32,000 nucleotides of DNA from Psychrobacter cryohalolentis K5 (GCF_000013905.1 NC_007969.1:1320001-1352000), one strand, 5' to 3'; shown: positions 4,452-32,000, counted from the stretch's first letter. Made by a program: numbers and translations. The notes: generated by a model from the sequence alone, not told the origin.

Positions 4452-4487
4452 CATGGGGCATGGGGCATGGGGCATGGGCATCATGGG
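4452..4487. repeat. CATGGGG heptamer tandem array (3 perfect units, then CATGGG and a CATCATGGG variant)
   Basis: Read directly: gcatggggcatggggcatggggcatgggcatcatggg, beginning 12 nt after the gspM stop codon. G-runs lie at 4455-58, 4462-65, 4469-72 and 4476-78, separated by CAT. Confidence 0.9.
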
Positions 4488-4554
4488 AATAAAGTTTACT
4501 CAAAAGTAGTCAGTAGCTTTTATGCTAACAAACCCATTTATACAGCAGACCTTA

Positions 4555-4583
4555 TTGAAAAAGTGCTTCTTAGACACTATAAA
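4555..4583 (+). promoter_or_regulatory. Candidate sigma70-type promoter for the downstream membrane-protein gene
   Basis: TTGAAA (4555-4560), a 17-nt spacer, then TATAAA (4578-4583), about 75 nt upstream of ATG 4660. Motif resemblance only. Confidence 0.3.
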
Positions 4584-4659
4584 ATAGCTATAACAAATGT
4601 TTCACTTTAAAATTCATGACTCATTTATGTGTAGGGTTTTATAATCAGCACAATATGCT

Positions 4660-5109
4660 ATGTATGCCATGACAGGTGATCATATAAATAATCCGATGAG
4701 TGATAATATGAATAATAAACAAAGCCGCTCTTTAGTAACGTATAACCACATTACGTATTTATTATATGTACTCAGTTATTTTACTGCCGGTTTGCTATGG
4801 ATTGTGCCTATCTTTATGAATTATGCCAAACGTCGTGATGCTGATGGAACATGGCTTGCCACGCACTTTGACTGGCAAATTAAAACATTTTGGTACAGTA
4901 TTGTGTGGTTTATCGTGGGTATTGGCATCATCACTTTTGCTCTTGGTAGCTTTGGCGTGAGTATTATGGCGGATAGCGGTAATATCGCTGTCGGCTCGGT
5001 ATTACTGGCTAGCATTGGTTTTATTATTATGGGCGTTGCCTTTATTTGGCATTTATACCGTATCGTGCGAGGCTGGATTGCTCTGGCGGATGGTCGACCT
5101 GTCCCTTAA
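4660..5109 (+). CDS. Small integral membrane protein (DUF4870-like, 3-4 TM)
   Basis: Hydrophobic segments are YLLYVLSYFTAGLLWIVPIF, FWYSIVWFIVGIGIITFAL and VLLASIGFIIMGVAFIW. The block Y.KRRDADGTWLATHF.WQI.TFW resembles the conserved loop of that family. The start is ambiguous (ATG 4660, 4669, 4696 or 4708). Confidence 0.55.
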   Translation: MYAMTGDHINNPMSDNMNNKQSRSLVTYNHITYLLYVLSYFTAGLLWIVPIFMNYAKRRDADGTWLATHFDWQIKTFWYSIVWFIVGIGIITFALGSFGVSIMADSGNIAVGSVLLASIGFIIMGVAFIWHLYRIVRGWIALADGRPVP

Positions 5110-5445: not shown

Positions 5446-6480
5446 ATGTCTTATGCCTTACTTCGCCCTTTTTTGTTTAATATGGACCCTGAACACGCGC
5501 ATGAAATGACCTTATCCTTATTGGATAAAGCTCATAAAGCGCGTGTTTTAGGTTTGGTTTATGGTCAATCTATGCAGCCAACTGATTGCATGGGCTTGCA
5601 GTTCTCTAATCCTGTTGGTCTCGCTGCTGGGCTAGATAAAAACGGCGATTATATTGACGCCTTAGCTGAACTTGGTTTTGGCTTTATCGAAGTAGGTACG
5701 GTCACCCCAAAGCCGCAAGCCGGTAATGATAGACCACGTTTATTTAGGCTCAAACAAGCAGACGCCATTATTAACCGTATGGGTTTTAACAATGAAGGTG
5801 TCGACTACCTCATTGAAAATGTGCAGCGCTGTAAATACAAAGGCAATATCGGCATTAATATCGGTAAAAACGCTGCAACGCCAGTTGAAAAAGCGGCTGA
5901 TGACTATGTTTACTGCTTAGAGCGTGTTTACCCACATGCTTCCTACATCACTGTCAATATCTCTTCGCCAAATACCGCAAATTTACGTGACCTGCAAAGC
6001 GGAGAAGCATTAACCCATCTGTTAGATGCGATCAAAAACCGCCACAGTCAATTGGCAACAGAATACGGTTTTTATGTGCCATTGGTTCTTAAAGTCGCGC
6101 CTGATTTAGATCCAATACAGGTAGATTATATCTCTCAGCAACTGCTGGATTTCGAGATTGATGGTTTGATTGCGACCAATACCACATTGAGCCGCGTAGG
6201 CGTCGAAGATTTGCCCGATGGCGATCAAGCAGGCGGTTTATCAGGTCGTCCGGTCAGCCACATTAGTACGCAGATTTTACAACAATTCTCTGATCAGCTG
6301 GATGGTAAAGTGGCATTGATTGGGGTCGGCGGTATCGATAGCGGCGCTAAAGCTGTCAAGAAAATCGAAGCGGGCGCAGATATGGTTCAGCTTTATTCAG
6401 GGCTTATTTATAAAGGGCCTGGGCTTGTACAGTCTTGTATACAGTCTATCGGTGGTTATTACGACGCAATGGAAAATTAA
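5446..6480 (+). CDS. pyrD: Dihydroorotate dehydrogenase (quinone), class 2
   Basis: [20 protein letters not shown]..., [40 protein letters not shown] and GGLSG are collinear with E. coli PyrD. ATG 5446 is preferred over the track's TTG at 5389, which adds a non-homologous leader. Confidence 0.92.
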
Positions 6481-24780: not shown

Positions 24781-26109
24781 ATGTCGTCATCCCCGAATGC
24801 CGAGAACAAGGCTGGTCTCTTAAAGTGGTTACCTTGGGTTTTACTGCTATTGGTCACAGCTGCCTTTATTTGGTTATTTGTGAGTATGAAGACAGCATCG
24901 GAGGCAAAATGGGAGCCGCCAAAGACCACACCTGCTGAGCAGCAAGCTTCCGAGCCGGTATCGGACTCACCAACGCCTATCGCCTCTTATCATAATGGTG
25001 TGGCTCGAGCCTCCCAGTCTGTGGTCAATATCTATACCACGCAGACGATGGCAGAACATCCTTATATGAACGATCCGGTGTTGCGCCGGTTTTTTGAATA
25101 TCATGGCGCGCCGTCAGAAGAGCAAGGCAATACCAACCTAGGTTCAGGCGTTATCGTGTCGGATGATGGTTATATCGTCACCAATGCCCATGTGATTGAA
25201 AAAGCCGATGAAATTACCGTTGCGTTTAATGATGGTCGTAAAAGCCGTGCAAAATTAATTGGCACAGACCCAGATAGTGATTTGGCAGTGATTAAAGTCG
25301 ATATGACTGGGCTTACACCATTAGGCTTTCGTGAAAAACCAACGCTTGTCGGCGATGTAGCACTAGCGATTGGTAATCCATTTGGTGTCGGTCAAACCGT
25401 TACCCAAGGTATTATTTCAGCGACTGGACGTACAGGGCTTGGCGTTAATAAGTTTGAAGACTTTATTCAAACTGATGCGGCTATCAATCCGGGTAACTCG
25501 GGCGGCGCATTGGTTGATGCACGTGGTGAGCTGATTGGTATCAATACTGCCATCTACTCACGCTCTGGTGGCTCTATGGGTATTGGATTTGCTATTCCCA
25601 CCGCTATCGTTGAGCAAGTGATGAATGCTCTGATCAAAGATGGCAAGGTCAGTCGTGGTTGGCTGGGTATTGAGATACAATCGCAGCTGAGAGATCCGAC
25701 ACAGCTCGAATCATCAACAGGCGTAGAGGTACTTAACGTGGTTCCTAAGAGCCCAGCTGCTAAGAGCGGTCTAAAAGTTGGCGATATTGTTTTGACCATT
25801 GATGGGGTTGAGATGACTGATGCCAATACCTTGATTCAGTATGTCGCTCGTAAAGCACCTAATACCACGCTGCATGCTCAAATCTTACGTCAAGGTAAAA
25901 ATGCGCAAGTGAAGATATTGCTAGAGGAGCGTCCAGTTGAAGAGCCAGTCACCGTTCCTGTTGTGATTCAAGATGAAACGCTTGGCGGTGCGCAGCCACC
26001 AACGCTACAAGCGCCAGAACAAGACACCCCTATGATGTCAGAGGCTGAACGTGACCGTATGCGTGAAGAGCTTTTATTACTGTTCGAAAGAGATGGTGCA
26101 CCTTTGTAA
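24781..26109 (+). CDS. S1C serine endoprotease, DegS/AlgW-like (N-terminal TM anchor, one PDZ, acidic C-terminal extension)
   Basis: TM WLPWVLLLLVTAAFIWLFV. Catalytic triad blocks TNAHV, DLAVIK and GNSGGALV. A single PDZ (GVEVLNVVPKSPAAKSGLKVGDIVLTIDG) is followed by ~60 extra residues. Confidence 0.85.
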   Translation: MSSSPNAENKAGLLKWLPWVLLLLVTAAFIWLFVSMKTASEAKWEPPKTTPAEQQASEPVSDSPTPIASYHNGVARASQSVVNIYTTQTMAEHPYMNDPVLRRFFEYHGAPSEEQGNTNLGSGVIVSDDGYIVTNAHVIEKADEITVAFNDGRKSRAKLIGTDPDSDLAVIKVDMTGLTPLGFREKPTLVGDVALAIGNPFGVGQTVTQGIISATGRTGLGVNKFEDFIQTDAAINPGNSGGALVDARGELIGINTAIYSRSGGSMGIGFAIPTAIVEQVMNALIKDGKVSRGWLGIEIQSQLRDPTQLESSTGVEVLNVVPKSPAAKSGLKVGDIVLTIDGVEMTDANTLIQYVARKAPNTTLHAQILRQGKNAQVKILLEERPVEEPVTVPVVIQDETLGGAQPPTLQAPEQDTPMMSEAERDRMREELLLLFERDGAPL

Positions 26110-26150
26110 AGAGAGTGTTTACCGATTCTCTGATCTCTAAGAGCAATAAC

Positions 26151-26187
26151 AAAAAGCGCACTATCTATAAGATAGCGCGCTTTTTTA
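26151..26187. terminator. Bidirectional intrinsic terminator between the convergent protease gene and yfaE
   Basis: aaaa-agcgcactatc-tataa-gatagcgcgct-ttttt. 11-bp stem with one mismatch. Confidence 0.65.
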
Positions 26188-26233
26188 ATAAGTTTTGATT
26201 GATCGAATAGTTAATAATTTATTGATTTAGCAG

Positions 26234-26500
26234 CTACTTTTCTATCAGCTCATGATTGACATAAATCACGCCTTGTACTCTACAGCAGCAAGGTAGGATT
26301 TCATCTTTTTCAATCATGGCTAAGGGCTCAAAAGGATAATCAATAACGTGTGAGCTGGCGATACGCTTGATGCGGCAGCTGCCACAATAACCTTCCTTAC
26401 ATTGATAATTGATATCATGTCCGGTGCGTAGCAATCCATCAAGCAAGCTTTCGTCATCATGCAAGTAAAATTGCTTCTTACTCGTCATTACCCAAGTCAT
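26234..26500 (-). CDS. yfaE: 2Fe-2S ferredoxin YfaE (class Ia RNR maintenance ferredoxin)
   Basis: 88 aa with YQCKEGYCGSCR ... ILPCCC, the same Cys pattern as E. coli YfaE. It sits directly downstream of nrdB. Confidence 0.85.
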   Translation of the reverse strand: MTWVMTSKKQFYLHDDESLLDGLLRTGHDINYQCKEGYCGSCRIKRIASSHVIDYPFEPLAMIEKDEILPCCCRVQGVIYVNHELIEK

Positions 26501-26563
26501 AGTTTTATCCTATCTTTTTATAATATGGTCAATCCTAAATAAAATAAGTACAATTATTATAAC

Positions 26564-26639
26564 GTGCTACTGGGATAAATTTTACTTGCTTGCTGTGCCT
26601 ACGCAGACAGAGGCTGCGCAAAACTTATCCCAGCAGCAC
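26564..26639. repeat. REP/MITE-like palindromic element, copy 2 (nrdB-yfaE spacer)
   Basis: Arms 26564-26583 and 26620-26639 pair at 18 of 20 positions. The 36-nt core matches 5234-5269 at 31 of 36 positions. Confidence 0.8.
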
Positions 26640-26697
26640 TACACTTATTCTATGATGAATCGACTATATTAAAAGCTCAATCTTGAAAAACTATCTT

Positions 26698-27831
26698 CTA
26701 CAACTCAAAATCATCAAAATCGCTGTCTGATAAGTCTGAATCAATCTGACCGACCAAGTACGAGCTAATCTCTGTTTCTTGCGGGGCAACTTGTACGTTG
26801 TCAGACGACAACCACGTGTTAATCCATGGAATCGGATTTGATTTAGAGTTCGGGAATGCGACTGGTAAGCCAACCGCTTCCATACGTAAATTGGTGATGT
26901 ATTCGATATATTGGCAAAGAATGTCTTTATTCAGCCCAATCATCGAACCGTCTTTGAACAGATAGCCTGCCCATTCTTTTTCTTGCTCAGCTGCTTTACG
27001 GAATATCTCGATGCTTTCTTCGTAGCATTCTTTAGCGATATCGACCATCTCCGGATCATCACGACCGATGCGCATGAGGTTAAGGATATGCTGAGTACCT
27101 GTTAAATGTAGCGCCTCATCACGAGCGATCAATTTAATAATCTTGGCATTACCTTCCATTAGCTTACGCTCAGCAAAGGCAAATGAGCAAGCAAATGATA
27201 CATAAAAGCGAATGGCTTCTAGGACATTGACTGCCATCAAGCACAAATAAAGCTGCTTTTTCAGTGATTTTAAATCGATGGTAATTTGCTTACCATTGAT
27301 CGTATGCGTGCCTGCACCGTATAGGTTATATAGCGATGAGCTGTAATACAAATCATCATAATACTTAGCGATGTCCGCCGCGCGCCCTAGGATGTGCTCG
27401 TTTTGCATGATGTCATCAAAGACGATAGCAGGGTCATTGATAATATTACGAATGATATGGGTATAGCTGCGCGAGTGAATGGTTTCAGAAAACGTCCACG
27501 TCTCAATCCAAGTCTCAAGTTCAGGGATAGACACGAGCGGCAATAGCACCACGTTTGGGCTACGGCCTTGGATAGAGTCGAGTAGGGTCTGGTATTTGAG
27601 GTTACTCAAAAATATATGCTGCTCATGCGAAGACAGGTTGCCAAAGTCCATACGATCTTTTGATACATCAACTTCTTCTGGACGCCAAAAGAACGACAAC
27701 TGCTTTTCAATCAGCTGCTCAAAGATAGGGTGCTTTTGTTGGTCGTAACGCGCCACGTTGACCGGATTACCAAAAAACATCGGCTCTGTTAGCGCATTGT
27801 TTGGCGTTTGGGAAAAAATCGAATAAGTCAT
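26698..27831 (-). CDS. nrdB: Ribonucleoside-diphosphate reductase beta subunit (class Ia)
   Basis: 377 aa, collinear with E. coli NrdB ([62 protein letters not shown]-terminal [10 protein letters not shown]). Confidence 0.97.
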
Positions 27832-27903
27832 GGGACTGCCTTTATCATTGATATGGTTATTAAGTTATAGGGTTTTGACTAGATTTGGTTTGATTGGATT
27901 ATA

Positions 27904-28287
27904 TTACAAGTGCTCTAAAGATATTTGTTCTGGCGTCTGTCCGTCATTCATATACGCTTTAAACATCTCACTCAGCTCGCTATCGTCCAAACCTTCCAAT
28001 TCATCGATCGCACTCTTACGCAGCGCACTCAAGCCATCATCATCTGATAGTTGCTGCATTTCTTTCTGTACGTCTTTTTTAGTCACTCTCTTTACTGGTT
28101 TTTTCAATACTTTTGTGGCGACTTTCTTTAATGCTTCTGGTTTTGCTGCTGTGCCTTCGCCTAATTGCTCACGGACGTCTGCGATGTCGACTTCTACTTG
28201 TACGATATGCGAGCCACCATCGTTTAGGTCTGAAAATACGTTTGGGATAAACAAACCACCGTCTTTGATGATTGCGGTATATTGCAC
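27904..28287 (-). CDS. Hypothetical 127-aa protein with a DUF104-antitoxin-like N-terminus and a Lys-rich then acidic tail
   Basis: GTG start at 28287 with GGAGG 4 nt upstream. The first upstream in-frame stop is 12 codons away. N-terminus MQYTAIIKDGGLFIPNVFSDLNDGGSHIVQVEV follows the A.Y.NG.F.P....L.EG..V.V pattern of DUF104 proteins. The rest is unrecognised. Confidence 0.6.
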   Translation of the reverse strand: MQYTAIIKDGGLFIPNVFSDLNDGGSHIVQVEVDIADVREQLGEGTAAKPEALKKVATKVLKKPVKRVTKKDVQKEMQQLSDDDGLSALRKSAIDELEGLDDSELSEMFKAYMNDGQTPEQISLEHL

Positions 28288-28357
28288 ATGACCTCCGTCG
28301 TTTTCATTGTTTGTGTGTTTCAGTTATAGCACTTAATGCCTCTTATAATGACTTTCA

Positions 28358-28645
28358 TCATGGCTGGCGTGTCGCAAGATTGTCATATACTTTGTTGTTT
28401 TCTCTTTTGCCTACTGCTAATACATAAACTACCACCACATCATCTTTTACGGTATATACCAGACGATAGCCTACGGTGCGTAATTTGATTTTATAAGTAT
28501 CCGTATGTCCCGATAGTTTTGACGCAGGCACATGAGGGTTTGACAATCGCTGCTGTAATTTTTTCTTGAACTGCTGCTGAATATTTGGCGCTATCTTTTT
28601 CCACTCTTTTAACGCTAAAGGATGAAACTCAAGATTATAAGTCAT
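28358..28645 (-). CDS. relE: Type II toxin RelE (mRNA interferase, RelE/StbE family)
   Basis: 95 aa, alignable end to end by eye with E. coli RelE (ALKEWKK, KKKL, YKIKLR, GYRLVY, VVVYVLAVGKRE, VY). The start overlaps the antitoxin stop by 11 nt. Confidence 0.9.
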   Translation of the reverse strand: MTYNLEFHPLALKEWKKIAPNIQQQFKKKLQQRLSNPHVPASKLSGHTDTYKIKLRTVGYRLVYTVKDDVVVVYVLAVGKRENNKVYDNLATRQP

Positions 28646-28886
28646 CCAACGTTACCTTTATCGGTATCTGCCCGTCATTTAACCGTGCGCTAACGGTTTG
28701 GCTTAATGCCATGTCGTCCATGGCTTCCATCATGCGCTCGAATACGTCTGTCGAAACTAGGTAAGCCACGGGTTTATTGTGGTTTAAAATAGCAATAGAC
28801 TCACCGTCTGACTGTTTAATCAGTGCCGACGGGTTGGATTTTAGTTCTGAGATACTGGCTGTCTGTGTCGCAAATATTGGTTTCAT
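28635..28886 (-). CDS. Type II antitoxin with a Phd/YefM-type N-domain and RelB-like C-terminal tail (StbD-type)
   Basis: 83 aa. ISELKSNPSALIKQSDGESIAILNHNKPVAYLVS is the Phd/YefM fold signature. The C-terminus PIKVTLDDL resembles the RelE-binding tail of E. coli RelB (PVRVTLDEL, as I recall it). GGAG lies 8 nt before the ATG. Confidence 0.88.
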   Translation of the reverse strand: MKPIFATQTASISELKSNPSALIKQSDGESIAILNHNKPVAYLVSTDVFERMMEAMDDMALSQTVSARLNDGQIPIKVTLDDL

Positions 28887-28976
28887 GATTCATTCTCCGC
28901 TAATATTACGCTCTAAATATAGCGCTAATTTTAGCACGAAAATTAGGTCTTATTTGTTAATCTATTTATGCATAAT

Positions 28977-29046
28977 TTGTAGGGTGCGCCTCGCGCACCT
29001 TTAAATACGATTTCTATATCATCGGTGCGCTGGGCGCACCCTACAA
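28977..29046. repeat. REPIN-like doublet: two inverted 23-nt REP units
   Basis: ttgtagggtgcgccTCgcgcacc (28977-28999) and the reverse complement of 29024-29046 (ttgtagggtgcgccCAgcgcacc) are identical except for the 2 central nt. Each unit itself contains a 7-bp hairpin, ggtgcgc-nnn-gcgcacc. The spacer is 24 nt. Confidence 0.85.
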
Positions 29047-29067
29047 CTTTGGCTAATCTGAGCCATA

Positions 29068-29838
29068 TTATTTAATGCCTTTTGCCTTATTGATTTTTTT
29101 AGCTTTTGCTAGAATGGTTTTAGATTTGTTTTCGAATAATTCAGATAGAACATGTTCTAAAATTTCATACAAGTCAATGACATCATTTTTGGTTAATCTC
29201 TTTTCTGGGTGACTACCTTCATTACCAATCCATTTAATTGCCAAAAGTAATTCTTTAAGTTCAGAATTTTGCTTAGCTAGTTTATCAATTCTATTGTGTA
29301 AGTTTATTTTAACTCTCTTATTTTTATTGTTTATAGTAGTCTTTGGTATTTTGAAATGATTCAATATTAGCTCCAAGGCGGAGCGTGCATGATTTATTGC
29401 AGCAGAAGGAGAGCTAAAAAATAATTCAAAAGACTTATTAAGTTGATTAGTAATATCATCTGGAACATTTTCAGGTATGTCGATGATTTTTAATGATGGA
29501 TAAAAATAATAAGGCTCGAAACATGGTGAATAAACCTGCTGTTGCATACCGTAGTCATCTTCTTCTATGTCCCAATCCAAACAACCATGACCTGAGCTTG
29601 CAAACTGTTCATTACAATTGTTGTTTGAACATCTAAAGATGCAACTATATACGAAACGAACCGATTCAGGATCCGATTCATAGAGAGGGTGCACTTTTTG
29701 AGAAACAGAAGTTTCTTTACTAAAAAACGTATCCTCATTAATCACTAAATAGCCATTAGAACAAGGCCAATAAGTATTTTGGTTTGTTGTGAAGTAGGAA
29801 GTTAGAAGTTCTTTGTCAATCATGAAATATGGTCTCAT
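29068..29838 (-). CDS. Hypothetical protein with a Cys-rich N-terminal domain and DUF4145-like C-terminal domain
   Basis: 256-aa ORF in markedly AT-rich DNA. The C-terminal half (AAINHARSALELIL ... LLAIKWIGNEGSHPE ... VIDLYEILEHVLSELF) matches the DUF4145 pattern (R.alE ... lR.lGN.aaH ...) as I recall it. The N-terminus carries WPC, CIFRCSNNNC, GHGC and SPC. The start is ATG 29838 or 29823, and no SD is seen for either. Confidence 0.65.
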   Translation of the reverse strand: MRPYFMIDKELLTSYFTTNQNTYWPCSNGYLVINEDTFFSKETSVSQKVHPLYESDPESVRFVYSCIFRCSNNNCNEQFASSGHGCLDWDIEEDDYGMQQQVYSPCFEPYYFYPSLKIIDIPENVPDDITNQLNKSFELFFSSPSAAINHARSALELILNHFKIPKTTINNKNKRVKINLHNRIDKLAKQNSELKELLLAIKWIGNEGSHPEKRLTKNDVIDLYEILEHVLSELFENKSKTILAKAKKINKAKGIK

Positions 29839-30025
29839 GTAGTAAGTCTATAATTATTTATATAGTCATAAATTACCATGCTATTTTTTAAGCCAATGAT
29901 ACAATAGTCTTACTTGGCACAGAGGTTTCACTGCTAGTCTCAATATTGGAACATAGCGAGCTTAACTAAATAAGCAAAACCCGCCATCCGTCAGAAATTC
30001 TATTTAAAGAGCTTCTTTTGCAAAC

Positions 30026-32000
30026 CTAGATCTTACAAGCCCCGCCCGCACAATCATCTTCCATATCCGCTTGGGCATCGTTCGCACCATCACGAGTGTT
30101 ATGATAGTACAAAGTTTTCACGCCAAGCTTATACGCGTTTAACAAGTCTTTTAGTAATATCTTCATTGGTACACGGCCGCCTTCATAACGAACAGGATCG
30201 TAGTTGGTATTGGCAGAGATACTTTGATCAACGAATTTTTGCATGACAGCGACCAGCTTTAGGTAACCATCATTGTTTGGCATTTGCCATAGTAGCTCAT
30301 ACTGATTTTTTAGCTTATTAATCTCAGGCACGACTTGCTTCAAGATGCCATCTTTTGACGCTTTGATAGAGACCAGACCGCGTGGTGGCTCGATACCATT
30401 AGTGGCGTTGGCGATCTGACTCGAGGTCTCAGACGGCATCAAGGCGGTTAGGGTAGAGTTGCGTAGACCGTGCTCAGTGATCTCGCCACGTAGCGTTTCC
30501 CAATCGAGATGTAGCGGCTCTTGGCAGATTTTATCCAAGTCTTTTTTGTACGTATCAATCGGCAAGATACCTTGTGAGTACGTCGTCTCATTGAACGCAG
30601 GGCAAGCGCCTTGCTCTTTTGCCAATTTGTTTGACGCTTTCAAGAGATAAAATTGCAATGCTTCAAAGGTTTGATGCGTCAGACCAATGGCGCTGTCGTC
30701 TGAATAGCGTACGCCATTCTTGGCAAGGTAATAAGCATAGTTAATCACGCCCACACCGAGCGTACGGCGACGCATGCTGCCGTTTTGAGCGGCTTTTACT
30801 GGATAGTCTTGATAGTCAAGCAGGGCATCAAGCGCACGGACAATTAGCTCAGCTGGTTCTTCGATATCGCTGACGTTTTCGACTTTACCCAAGTTGACCG
30901 CTGATAGCGTGCAAAGCGCGATTTCGCCTTCTTCGTCATTGATATTATCCAGTGGCTTCGTCGGTAGGGCGATTTCCATACATAGGTTTGACTGGCGAAT
31001 CGGCGCAACCGTCGCGTCAAATGGGCTATGCGTATTGCAATGATCGACGTTTTGGATATAGATACGACCCGTACTGGCGCGCTCTTGCATCATTAGACTG
31101 AACAAGTCTGCTGCTGGGATTTGACGGCTACGAATAGCAGGGTCATTTTCGTACTTGGTGTATAGCTCTTCGAACTTGTCTTGATCTTCAAAGAAAGCAT
31201 CATACAAGCCAGGGGTATCACCTGGAGAGAATAGCGAGATGTCTTGACCTTTTATTAGGCGAGTGTACATCGTTTTGTTTAACTGTACGCCATAATCCAT
31301 ATGACGGACACGGTTGTCTTCGACGCCACGGTTGTTTTTCAATACTAAGAGCGACTCAACTTCTAAATGCCATAATGGGTAGAATAATGTCGCAGCACCG
31401 CCACGGACGCCACCTTGTGAGCAGCATTTAACGGCTGTCTGAAACAATTTGTAGAATGGGATACAACCCGTATGCTGTGCTTCGCCGCCACGGATAGGGC
31501 TACCGAGGGCACGGATGCGACCAGCGTTGATGCCGATACCAGCACGCTGTGACACGTAGCGTACGATGGCGCTGGTGGTCGCGTTGATAGAGTCTAGGCT
31601 ATCACCACATTCGATAAGGACGCACGAGCTAAACTGGCGCGATGGCGTACGTACGCCTGACATGATAGGGGTTGGTAGTGAGATTTTGAATTCTGAAGTC
31701 GCATCATAGAAACGCTTCACATAGTTCATACGCTCTGATTTTTCGTAACGGCTGAACAAGCACATACCAACCAGCATGTACAAGAACTGCGGGCTTTCAA
31801 AGACGGTTTTGCTCACGCGATCTTGAACGAGGTATTTACCTGCCATTTGCTCAACAGCAGCATAAGCAAGGTTCATATCGCGCCAGTGATCGAGATACTC
31901 TTCTAACTCGTCAAATTCAGCACGGCTATAGTCCGCTAGGATATGCTGATCGTATTTTCCAGCATCAGTGAGTTTTTTAACGTGATCATACAGGTGCGGC
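30026..32000 (-). CDS. nrdA: Ribonucleoside-diphosphate reductase alpha subunit (class Ia), N-terminus outside the window
   Basis: Collinear with E. coli NrdA residues ~110-761 (FSSCVLIECGDSLDSINAT, GGVRGGAATLFYP, NLCMEIALPT, SETSSQ, C-terminal GGACKI). The frame stays open upstream of the track's Met at 31876 to base 32000 (..PHLYDHVKKLTDAGKYDQHILADYSRAEFDELEEYLDHWRDM). Confidence 0.97.
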   Translation of the reverse strand, partial: PHLYDHVKKLTDAGKYDQHILADYSRAEFDELEEYLDHWRDMNLAYAAVEQMAGKYLVQDRVSKTVFESPQFLYMLVGMCLFSRYEKSERMNYVKRFYDATSEFKISLPTPIMSGVRTPSRQFSSCVLIECGDSLDSINATTSAIVRYVSQRAGIGINAGRIRALGSPIRGGEAQHTGCIPFYKLFQTAVKCCSQGGVRGGAATLFYPLWHLEVESLLVLKNNRGVEDNRVRHMDYGVQLNKTMYTRLIKGQDISLFSPGDTPGLYDAFFEDQDKFEELYTKYENDPAIRSRQIPAADLFSLMMQERASTGRIYIQNVDHCNTHSPFDATVAPIRQSNLCMEIALPTKPLDNINDEEGEIALCTLSAVNLGKVENVSDIEEPAELIVRALDALLDYQDYPVKAAQNGSMRRRTLGVGVINYAYYLAKNGVRYSDDSAIGLTHQTFEALQFYLLKASNKLAKEQGACPAFNETTYSQGILPIDTYKKDLDKICQEPLHLDWETLRGEITEHGLRNSTLTALMPSETSSQIANATNGIEPPRGLVSIKASKDGILKQVVPEINKLKNQYELLWQMPNNDGYLKLVAVMQKFVDQSISANTNYDPVRYEGGRVPMKILLKDLLNAYKLGVKTLYYHNTRDGANDAQADMEDDCAGGACKI

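Follow-up and report, generated by a model that had tools for sequence, protein, structure and literature searches.

We analysed a stretch of 32,000 nucleotides (nt) from Psychrobacter cryohalolentis K5 (NC_007969.1:1320001-1352000; hereafter the window), in which nrdA and nrdB, the genes for the two subunits of class Ia ribonucleotide reductase (RNR), are separated by a spacer of 2194 nt (27832..30025). According to the ORF listing, this spacer contains four open reading frames (ORFs), all on the nrd strand: a gene for a DUF4145 protein, an antitoxin gene of the Phd/YefM type followed by a relE toxin gene, which together form a toxin-antitoxin (TA) pair, and orf127, named for its product of 127 amino acids (aa). 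A conserved RNA hairpin lies shortly past nrdA, and an inverted pair of repetitive extragenic palindromic (REP) units, or REPIN, lies between the DUF4145 gene and the TA pair. We propose, with a probability of about 0.72, that the K5 spacer is one allele of a variable hotspot present in every sampled Psychrobacter in which both nrd genes could be placed, and that it is a mosaic of independent modules.

An earlier account of the window, made from its sequence alone (the sequence-only reading), had described a 2.2-kb gap with four operon-strand genes, a REPIN and an AT-rich DUF4145 gene, and all of these hold. The G+C content of the DUF4145 gene is 0.29-0.38, versus 0.40-0.575 in nrdA and 0.38-0.46 in nrdB. 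The two arms of the REPIN (28974-28999 and 29024-29049) are 26 nt long, 88% complementary, and each start with GTAG, and as RNA the element has a predicted folding energy of -48.7 kcal/mol (z = -10). The nrdA stop codon occupies 30026-30028; its ORF covers 30026..31876 on the (-) strand, and the start of the gene lies beyond the end of the window. Downstream of nrdB is a yfaE-like gene, 3' of which a terminator scan finds a strong terminator-like hairpin (26185-26151) with a 16-bp stem. Coordinates are collected in Table 1.

The nrdA-nrdB spacer in other genomes

A scan with NrdB that kept one genome per species yielded 28 Psychrobacter loci, referred to by L numbers, together with loci from other Proteobacteria. 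In all 26 Psychrobacter loci in which both nrdA and nrdB were located, the spacer is large (1.1-4.9 kb), and spacer G+C content across the Psychrobacter loci is 0.25-0.39. The spacer measures 16-316 nt in 41 proteobacteria outside the Moraxellaceae, the exceptions being three Neisseriaceae with 0.87-1.4 kb, and the K5 spacer is therefore unusual for its class. In Moraxella and in one Psychrobacter metagenome-assembled genome (MAG; L027), nrdA is not found within 7 kb of nrdB, and genes on the opposite strand precede nrdB. A description of this Psychrobacter hotspot was not found in the searchable literature, the coverage of which is partial.

Comparison of the K5 interval with these loci by blastn reveals breakpoints that recur among species. 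Similarity that begins in nrdA ends near position 29955 in some loci and at the nrdA stop codon in the others; it is absent over 29954-29050, and resumes at the REPIN (29049-28970) in at least 12 species. The segment 28960-28331, which corresponds to the TA cassette, matches in 14 of the 28 loci, and the DNA from 28330 onward, with orf127 and nrdB, matches in nearly all of them. Because these distributions differ, the supposed islet resolves into four modules.

The modules of K5 also point to different relatives. NrdA of K5 is 88-99% identical to its counterparts in the 26 Psychrobacter loci where nrdA was found. NrdA and NrdB are both 98-99% identical to those of P. glacincola (L001), which carries different cargo, has no TA pair, and encodes an orf127 protein only 65% identical to that of K5. 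The TA proteins of K5 are 95-97% identical to those of four other loci (L015, L018, L021 and L028), whose NrdB proteins are approximately 92% and whose orf127 proteins are 64-68% identical to those of K5. Such a mosaic of identities is the pattern expected from homologous replacement via conserved flanks, and we infer that this is the route of exchange.

Table 1. Positions of features in the K5 window, and cargo annotated at the same site in other Psychrobacter loci
Feature	Locus	Position	Strand	Remarks
nrdA, 3' part (class Ia RNR large subunit)	K5	30026..32000	(-)	Pfam Ribonuc_red_lgC, E=2e-140; conserved left flank
Conserved RNA hairpin	K5	29948..29989	(-)	37 nt past the nrdA stop; terminator- or attenuator-like, weak U-tract in K5
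Hypervariable cargo position	K5	29050..29954	(-)	without counterpart in 28 representative Psychrobacter loci
DUF4145 cargo gene	K5	29068..29838	(-)	256 aa; Pfam DUF4145 (PF13643), E=4e-20
K5-specific 9-nt in-frame deletion site	K5	29758..29766	(-)	protein and DNA alignments
HEPN motif K202-x7-H210 (AIKWIGNEGSH)	K5	29209..29235	(-)	25-sequence alignment
REPIN	K5	28970..29049	(-)	two inverted GTAG-type REP units; right boundary of first cargo unit
Phd-RelE presence/absence cassette	K5	28331..28960	(-)	includes upstream palindromic region; shared blastn breakpoints
Phd/YefM antitoxin gene	K5	28635..28886	(-)	83 aa; Pfam PhdYeFM_antitox (PF02604), E=1e-13
RelE toxin gene	K5	28358..28645	(-)	95 aa; Pfam ParE_toxin, E=5e-15; TIGR02385 RelE_StbE above cut-off
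orf127	K5	27904..28287	(-)	127 aa; GTG start; GGAGG 4 nt upstream
nrdB	K5	26698..27831	(-)	Pfam Ribonuc_red_sm, E=1e-50; conserved right flank
yfaE-like 2Fe-2S ferredoxin gene	K5	26234..26500	(-)	Pfam Fer2, E=2.7e-10
Thoeris-like ThsA (SIR2+STALD) with ThsB TIR	L005			E=7e-64 (ThsA); E=1e-24 (ThsB TIR)
CBASS-like: SMODS nucleotidyltransferase and S_4TM effector	L016			E=5e-70
AIPR / AbiU	L001			E=4e-25
KAP NTPase	L006			E=1e-42
Full-length PD-T7-4/RAZR	L014 (Psychrobacter sp. T6-5)			E=3.9e-76; model positions 3-209
DUF2971	L015, L017
DUF6680	L011
Protein with C-terminal HhH motif	L012
Gene pair (77 aa + 295-310 aa)	L002	4964-6172
Gene pair (77 aa + 295-310 aa)	L004	5188-6396
Gene pair (77 aa + 295-310 aa)	L010	4583-5791
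Gene pair (77 aa + 295-310 aa)	L024	4368-5576
Gene pair (77 aa + 295-310 aa)	L025	4385-5617

Cargo genes

ORFs were extracted from every spacer and annotated by Pfam and PADLOC scans. Cargo ORFs of 100 aa or more number 41 in 29 loci; they group into 28 sequence families, and all 41 are on the nrd strand. Genes of known defence systems are among them (Table 1), and integrase or transposase domains are absent from the cargo proteins scanned. The combination of the same flanks, 28 families in 29 loci, and recognizable defence genes is that of a defence hotspot.

In this respect the site resembles the core defence hotspots (cDHS) of Pseudomonas aeruginosa (NAR 2023, PMC10250203), which have core-gene flanks, variable, low-G+C and defence-rich content, and no detected integrase. 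It differs in its flanks, which encode the two subunits of an essential enzyme and in most Proteobacteria lie close together in one operon. Its alleles are also short, with 1-5 kb and usually one or two genes, and the cargo is locked to one strand. Moreover, an RNA hairpin and a REPIN delimit the Psychrobacter slot, and a fixed orphan antitoxin gene goes with it. Each part of the locus is of a known kind, and the assembly is a new version of a core-gene-flanked defence hotspot, with no new mechanism. A normally tight nrdAB pair has, in one genus, been opened into a small exchange site for anti-phage genes.

The K5-type DUF4145 gene also fills the slot in P. namhaensis (87% identity) and in an uncultured Psychrobacter (75%), and the gene order DUF4145-TA-orf127 is repeated in both. 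The allele of the uncultured Psychrobacter (L084) additionally has a DUF6173 gene before the DUF4145 gene and a 70-aa ORF after it (4480-4881 and 6259-6471), neither of which is present in K5.

Several other alleles merit mention. A two-gene cargo (77 aa + 295-310 aa) without Pfam or PADLOC matches occupies the slot in five Psychrobacter species (Table 1), and is a promising candidate for a defence pair not described before. P. immobilis 1617 carries ORFs of 305 and 166 aa (L003 4789-6436) that correspond to a single 551-aa ORF in P. aquaticus (L028 4029-5684), and the split gene is probably a frameshifted pseudogene. In the longest alleles, which contain several genes in 4.6-4.9 kb, the REPIN follows the first cargo gene and is not at the right edge (L013 2977-3046; L022 3718-3794). 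Further genes were seemingly added 3' of the REPIN in these two loci, and one of them weakly matches the SUKH/SMI1-KNR4 immunity family.

The DUF4145 cargo protein

DUF4145 is a divergent HEPN family (Anantharaman et al. 2013, PMC3710099). A DUF4145/HEPN RNase domain forms the C-terminal part of RAZR (ring-activated zinc-finger RNase, formerly PD-T7-4), a single-gene abortive-infection system in which this domain is preceded by an N-terminal Cys4 zinc ribbon and a conserved linker (Nature 2026, PMC13017515). RAZR is activated by assembling around phage ring proteins, and residues R146 and H154 of RAZR-Ec are essential for activity and defence (PMC13017515).

The K5 protein exhibits a similar plan. 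PADLOC reports a weak match to its PD-T7-4 model (PDLC04109; E=6e-4, 17 bits) in which residues 112-227 align with positions 64-174 of 211. The assignment of the linker-joined C-terminal domain to DUF4145/HEPN is supported by Pfam (Table 1), by hhalign and by Foldseek, whose best interpretable match in the Protein Data Bank (PDB), albeit a weak one, is the HEPN toxin 7ae6 (probability 0.89). The same toxin was used as a comparator structure in the RAZR paper (PMC13017515). An AlphaFold2 (AF2) model, with a predicted local distance difference test score (pLDDT) of 88, places strands at residues 24-113, giving a beta-rich N-terminal half, and helices at 127-252. The alignment of 25 homologues has the pattern CPxC...CxxxxC in the N-terminal domain, a conserved linker (P114, P126), and an invariant A-x-K-x-x-G-N-x-x-S-H motif, whose residues K202, G205, N206, S209 and H210 are retained down to 31% identity.

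The features shared with RAZR are a single gene of similar size, a Cys-rich putative zinc ribbon, a linker, a DUF4145 domain with a GNxxxH core, an N-terminal domain that is the most variable part, and an occurrence in mobile DNA and defence contexts. In addition, a genuine PD-T7-4 gene is present in exactly this slot in Psychrobacter sp. T6-5 (L014). There are also differences. The N-terminal domain of the K5 protein is predicted to be approximately 50 residues longer, with long beta hairpins, and this domain does not align with the RAZR zinc-finger domain by hhalign. In the subfamily, Lys replaces Arg146, K202 being in the alignment column of the R in TVRITGNNAVH of bona fide RAZR proteins, and the K5 copy is short of one putative zinc-binding Cys. 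Judged from sequence, the K5 cargo protein therefore has an architecture like that of RAZR, with a putative zinc ribbon, a linker and a DUF4145/HEPN domain, but is a member of a separate subfamily. By analogy, members of this subfamily are most likely trigger-activated RNases like RAZR, although their chemistry is uncertain owing to the Lys. Their N-terminal domain could sense a phage protein assembly and bring HEPN domains into an active arrangement, upon which RNA cleavage would stop translation and abort the infection.

The subfamily is mobile, with members on 130 plasmids by tblastn. The earlier proposal that the spacer includes accessory, partly foreign DNA is supported. The DUF4145 gene is low in G+C, and the weak PD-T7-4 match and RAZR-like architecture favour the suggestion that it is related to defence. 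A member encoded by an E. coli IncHI1A plasmid (WP_001774870) has both the CxxC and the sequence AIKFLGNAGSH. DS-38, a validated single-protein defence system of E. coli, is reported to combine HEPN and a zinc finger distinct from PD-T7-4 (DefensePredictor, bioRxiv 10.1101/2025.01.08.631726). E. coli plasmid members of our subfamily such as WP_001774870 fit this description, and DS-38 may belong to the same subfamily as the K5 protein, the comparison being one of descriptions only. More distant DUF4145 homologues are standalone genes in varied conflict-gene neighbourhoods with no conserved partner, although one is located near a HigB-family TA pair.

The gene of K5 has undergone a 9-nt in-frame deletion (CCTTGTTCAACTTGTTCT to CCTTGTTCT) that converts WPCSTCSNG to WPCSNG and removes one Cys of the CxxC zinc knuckle. 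This CxxC is kept in all 24 other aligned family members (alignments including P0002-P0006, L081 and L084). The K5 copy may be impaired because one of four putative zinc-binding Cys residues has been lost, and only in K5. These features raise the possibility that the K5 gene is a decaying, non-functional relic, and that the subfamily as a whole, with Lys instead of the Arg that is essential in RAZR, perhaps has no RNase activity. There is also no clear Shine-Dalgarno sequence before either candidate ATG, and other cargo in the slot is visibly decaying, such as the gene that is split in L003 relative to L028 and the frameshifted relE of L025. However, the ORF is intact and in frame, its other 253 residues are 86-94% identical to those of relatives, an extra conserved Cys (C66) is located close to the second knuckle, and the AF2 model has high pLDDT. 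The invariant K202-H210 site indicates purifying selection. Decay therefore strikes us as a tentative and somewhat unlikely explanation. A natural series of RAZR-like proteins with Lys for Arg, varied sensor domains and one zinc-ligand deletion could serve to probe HEPN activation.

The Phd-RelE cassette

The toxin matches the E. coli RelE structures 4v7k and 4fxe over residues 1-91 (phmmer, E=2.4e-26), and 2kc8 at approximately 1e-25 to 1e-26. The RelE blocks YKIKLR, GYRLVY and VGKRE..VY are conserved, and the protein appears from its sequence to be a catalytically intact RelE, which is a ribosome-dependent mRNA interferase. The antitoxin has an N-terminal domain of the Phd/YefM type (NCBIfam phd_fam, TIGR01552, E=2.8e-7, above cut-off), and its last 29 residues match the RelB/DinJ equivalog (E=0.015). 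Its gene is directly upstream of relE and overlaps it by 11 nt, as is usual for type II TA modules. E. coli RelBE is thus similar in its full-length RelE, in its overlapping upstream antitoxin gene, and in its RelB-like antitoxin tail. In contrast with RelB, which has a ribbon-helix-helix domain, the K5 antitoxin has a Phd/YefM fold, and in K5 the adjoining downstream gene, orf127, encodes another protein with the antitoxin's tail. The Pfam, NCBIfam and RelE structure matches bear out the previous assignment of the pair as a genuine type II TA, and we regard it as a conventional module of this class.

With its upstream palindromes the cassette is approximately 630 bp long, and its breakpoints (~28959-28969 and 28330/28331) are common across species. 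Of the 28 representative Psychrobacter loci, 14 have the cassette, as do L081-L084. It adjoins at least eight different cargo sets, and near-identical TA pairs (95-97%) are next to four unrelated sets in L015, L018, L021 and L028. The slot of L014 contains a bona fide RAZR gene without any TA. In P. submarinus, relE (L025 6189-6475) is frameshifted into two overlapping 57-aa ORFs, and antitoxin and orf127 genes are intact, which looks like toxin decay. Among plasmids, matches to the cassette are limited to distant RelE/RelB sequences (67-79% over short stretches), with no copy on a Psychrobacter plasmid. The TA is present independently of the type of cargo, and no functional link ties it to the DUF4145 gene.

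The sequence-only reading had interpreted the four genes as one horizontally acquired islet, inserted into an otherwise tight operon, in which the RelE pair and the DUF4145 gene would constitute a joint and undescribed stress-coupled defence or addiction system expressed by read-through from RNR. The genes are co-oriented and closely spaced, a scan detects no canonical terminator between nrdA and the first of them, their order recurs in P. namhaensis and the uncultured Psychrobacter, and one distant DUF4145 homologue neighbours a TA pair. However, the distribution of the parts largely refutes this proposal. orf127 is found in 24 of 28 loci regardless of cargo, the TA is missing from half of the species and accompanies unrelated cargo elsewhere, and only the DUF4145 gene behaves as strain- or lineage-specific cargo. 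RAZR is found in the slot without TA and acts alone (PMC13017515), no partner is common to the distant DUF4145 homologues, and a conserved hairpin follows nrdA. Every placed Psychrobacter locus has a large gap, and nrdB is unlinked in Moraxella, so a single insertion into a tight operon is not the picture obtained. TA and DUF4145 genes vary independently and are therefore not one system. The comparison of intervals across Psychrobacter that had been proposed in that reading was decisive. The DNA is accessory and related to defence and TA systems, but it is not one unit, did not arise by a single insertion, and is probably not wired to the RNR promoter. We consider the single-islet account highly improbable.

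orf127

Homologues of orf127 are directly 5' of nrdB wherever they occur in the Psychrobacter loci. We found 374 homologues, and every one with a genus name is from Psychrobacter; a search of 1.84 billion clustered proteins yields only 13 representatives. Scans with Pfam and NCBIfam models at E<=0.1 give nothing above noise. The sequence-only reading had called this gene DUF104-like, and an AF2212-like antitoxin of that family was rejected as a candidate, because Pfam DUF104 does not match at E<=0.1; the protein is nevertheless antitoxin-like.

It consists of a near-invariant 40-aa N-terminal domain, a variable Lys-rich linker and a conserved C-terminal tail. The last 31 residues are 42% identical to the tail of the neighbouring Phd-type antitoxin (E=1e-7) and are nearly invariant across the genus, which is consistent with an antitoxin tail. 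This tail also resembles the RelE-binding C terminus of E. coli RelB. An AF2 model (pLDDT 59, a confidence too low for a fold search) has a disordered linker and C-terminal helices, and this predicted layout is typical of antitoxins.

Distant relatives share the N-terminal domain and have a different tail (DPVxWQxxxRxxW). A VapB-like relative with the orf127 N-terminal domain is encoded in L206, where a PIN toxin gene starts one base past its stop codon. orf127 thus resembles solo and VapB-type antitoxins in its small N-terminal domain, disordered linker and helical tail, and in that the gene for a protein with its N-terminal domain abuts a PIN toxin gene. Unlike them, it is locked upstream of nrdB, lacks a cognate toxin in half of the species, occurs only in Psychrobacter and its close relatives, and belongs to no Pfam family. 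In K5, relE is 70 nt upstream of orf127; relE is absent in 14 of 28 species, 10 of which keep orf127. The metagenome scaffold L205 (433-809) encodes an 87-aa protein with the orf127 N-terminal domain and a VapB-like tail upstream of nrdB, followed by a 37-aa ORF. This ORF may be a toxin remnant, and the arrangement hints at an ancestral TA module at the 5' side of nrdB.

From these comparisons, orf127 is best read as a retained solo antitoxin, which could be an anti-addiction buffer or a fossil of an older TA module 5' of nrdB. It might buffer RelE, regulate its own transcription and that of nrdB, or both. It would then provide an example of a solo antitoxin fixed beside an essential gene.

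The RelE cassette, orf127, or both might instead stabilize the hotspot by post-segregational killing, as has been proposed for TA genes of chromosomal integrons. A TA pair is indeed present at a fixed position beside variable DNA in approximately half of the species, and RelE appears to be catalytically intact. Yet cargo has been exchanged while the TA stayed, as in the four loci with near-identical pairs, and alleles without the TA keep their cargo equally well. Moreover, relE is a pseudogene in L025, and a downstream solo antitoxin with the same tail would blunt addiction. We judge stabilization of this kind unlikely.

Hairpin, REPIN and transcription

At least 20 Psychrobacter loci have a hairpin of 13-18 bp that lies 13-80 nt past the nrdA stop codon. 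In K5 (29989-29948) its predicted energy is -17.4 kcal/mol (z = -3.95), and it is strand-specific. RNAalifold predicts 18 pairs, many of which are G-U; substitutions usually affect one side of a pair, and in 2 cases they are compensatory. Given its G-U richness, the hairpin is specific to the sense RNA. A U-run follows the stem in most species. Loci that lack the conserved hairpin have other hairpins 3' of nrdA. The sequence-only reading had noted no convincing terminator after nrdA, and a simple scan likewise reports none between nrdA and the DUF4145 gene because the predicted loop exceeds its limit; given the conserved hairpin, that statement is not borne out, and the U-tract of the hairpin is weak in K5. 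The structure probably ends or attenuates the nrdA transcript.

Two other elements occur near this hairpin. Immediately 5' of it, most species have an AT-rich palindrome, AGAAATTCT-TTAAAT-AGAATTTCT, which is degenerate in K5 (29994-30017, (-) strand). The palindrome is a possible protein-binding site, and a promoter-like match, TTTGCA-16-TAGAAT, overlaps it. In L002, L007, L020 and L022, an extra palindromic element of approximately 45 nt, GAACCGTTAAAAAATTGCAnTGCAATTTTAGGTTC, is located between the nrdA stop codon and the hairpin, and looks like a miniature mobile repeat.

At least 12 other Psychrobacter loci have the REPIN in the corresponding place. There is one copy in the window, and in approximately 15 kb from each of 30 related loci copies are found only in the nrdA-nrdB gap. 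The REP motif is also present in at least 120 metagenome contigs, often as inverted pairs. The sole match in an Rfam scan of 26000-30300, a resemblance of the REPIN to a miRNA precursor, scores far below the gathering threshold and is spurious. An integron cassette array was also rejected, because there is no integrase-like ORF (intI) in or beside the spacer and, by inspection, the REPIN ends are unlike the attC core consensus (RYYYAAC / GTTRRRY).

All cargo strictly runs in the direction of nrd, which suggests that its transcription depends to some extent on the operon. Cargo genes could be expressed by read-through of an nrdA-cargo-nrdB mRNA, in which case their level would follow replication stress and the demand for deoxynucleoside triphosphates (dNTPs). 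A mere 35-40 nt separate the end of the cargo from nrdB in L009 and L026, with little space for a promoter in between, the hairpins of K5 and L081 have weak U-tracts, and by RNA folding the 72-nt spacer between orf127 and nrdB is unstructured. Co-orientation and the cargo ends in L009 and L026 therefore keep partial read-through plausible. On the other hand, a stable hairpin, usually with a U-run, is present past nrdA in most species and other hairpins in the rest, the REPIN provides a further highly stable structure after the cargo, and nrdB appears to be transcribed independently of nrdA in Moraxella and L027. Co-orientation could be explained equally well by the avoidance of convergent transcription into essential genes. 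A search for NrdR boxes (ACACWATATATWGTGT, up to 3 mismatches) detected none in the spacer or upstream of nrdA in L081, a result that is uninformative on regulation. Based on the hairpins after nrdA and the unlinked nrdB of Moraxella, we argue that in this family the two nrd genes form separable units of transcription. The earlier proposal of read-through from the RNR promoter is weakened by the hairpin; partial read-through is still plausible in view of orientation, and as the general mode of cargo expression we find read-through rather unlikely.

A proposed modular hotspot

The observations described above are most readily accommodated by a hotspot of independent modules. Under this model, cargo would be swapped wholesale between lineages, likely by homologous recombination through conserved flanks that comprise nrdA and the hairpin on the left, and REPIN, TA, orf127 and nrdB on the right. 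The Phd-RelE cassette would be an optional element, preceded by palindromes of its own, that is gained and lost without regard to the cargo, and orf127 would be a fixed element, apparently co-transcribed with nrdB. The modular anatomy, the distributions, the domain assignments, the motif changes and the hairpins are observed directly; the recombination route, the RNase and abortive-infection activities, the transcription units and the role of orf127 are what we deduce from them.

Several points weigh against this interpretation. Each species is represented by a single genome. About 20 of the 28 cargo families lack a recognized defence-type domain or model match, so to call the site a defence slot is to extrapolate from an annotated minority. 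The U-run is weak in K5 and L081, and the co-orientation of cargo with the operon, which suggests some dependence on its transcription, would favour part of the sequence-only reading. As for K5 itself, the match to PD-T7-4 is partial, and the protein is not a member by the full-length hidden Markov model (HMM; E=6e-4), for which the L014 protein serves as a positive control. Alignment by hhalign to 16 bona fide RAZR proteins has a probability of 54% (E=1.3e-4) and covers 108 columns of the linker and HEPN domain. Searches of PDB by sequence and profile at E<=10, and by Foldseek, do not retrieve the RAZR structures 9Y9C and 9Y6U. The catalytic R-x7-H of RAZR is K202-x7-H210 throughout the subfamily, and its RNase chemistry is therefore not guaranteed. 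Finally, one ligand is missing from the putative zinc ribbon of the K5 protein.

The main value of the modular hotspot is as a source of candidate defence genes, since it offers a compact guilt-by-location catalogue of about 20 short families in which no defence domain is recognized, at a slot shared with Thoeris, CBASS-like, AbiU and RAZR genes. They include the 77+295-aa pair of five species and the families in L018/L021, L019/L022, L003/L028, L008, L009, L020 and L026. A broader proposal would be that these families are mostly undescribed anti-phage systems, that expression of cargo and of orf127-nrdB is tied to nrd transcription, and that orf127 both buffers RelE and lets nrdB function apart by acting as a promoter or regulator. 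We view this combination as speculative and improbable.

Related loci outside Psychrobacter

Insertions between nrdA and nrdB may not be confined to Psychrobacter. The spacer of an Eikenella MAG (L043 5699-6907) contains a gene for a 402-aa NERD-domain protein, and two Neisseria spacers contain unannotated ORFs of 190 and 194 aa (L070 6157-6729; L073 6113-6697). A contig labelled Streptomyces cinereus JCM 3040 (L035) encodes an NrdB with 78% identity to the Psychrobacter protein, and a yfaE-like gene comes next. This proteobacterial gene arrangement suggests assembly contamination or recent transfer.

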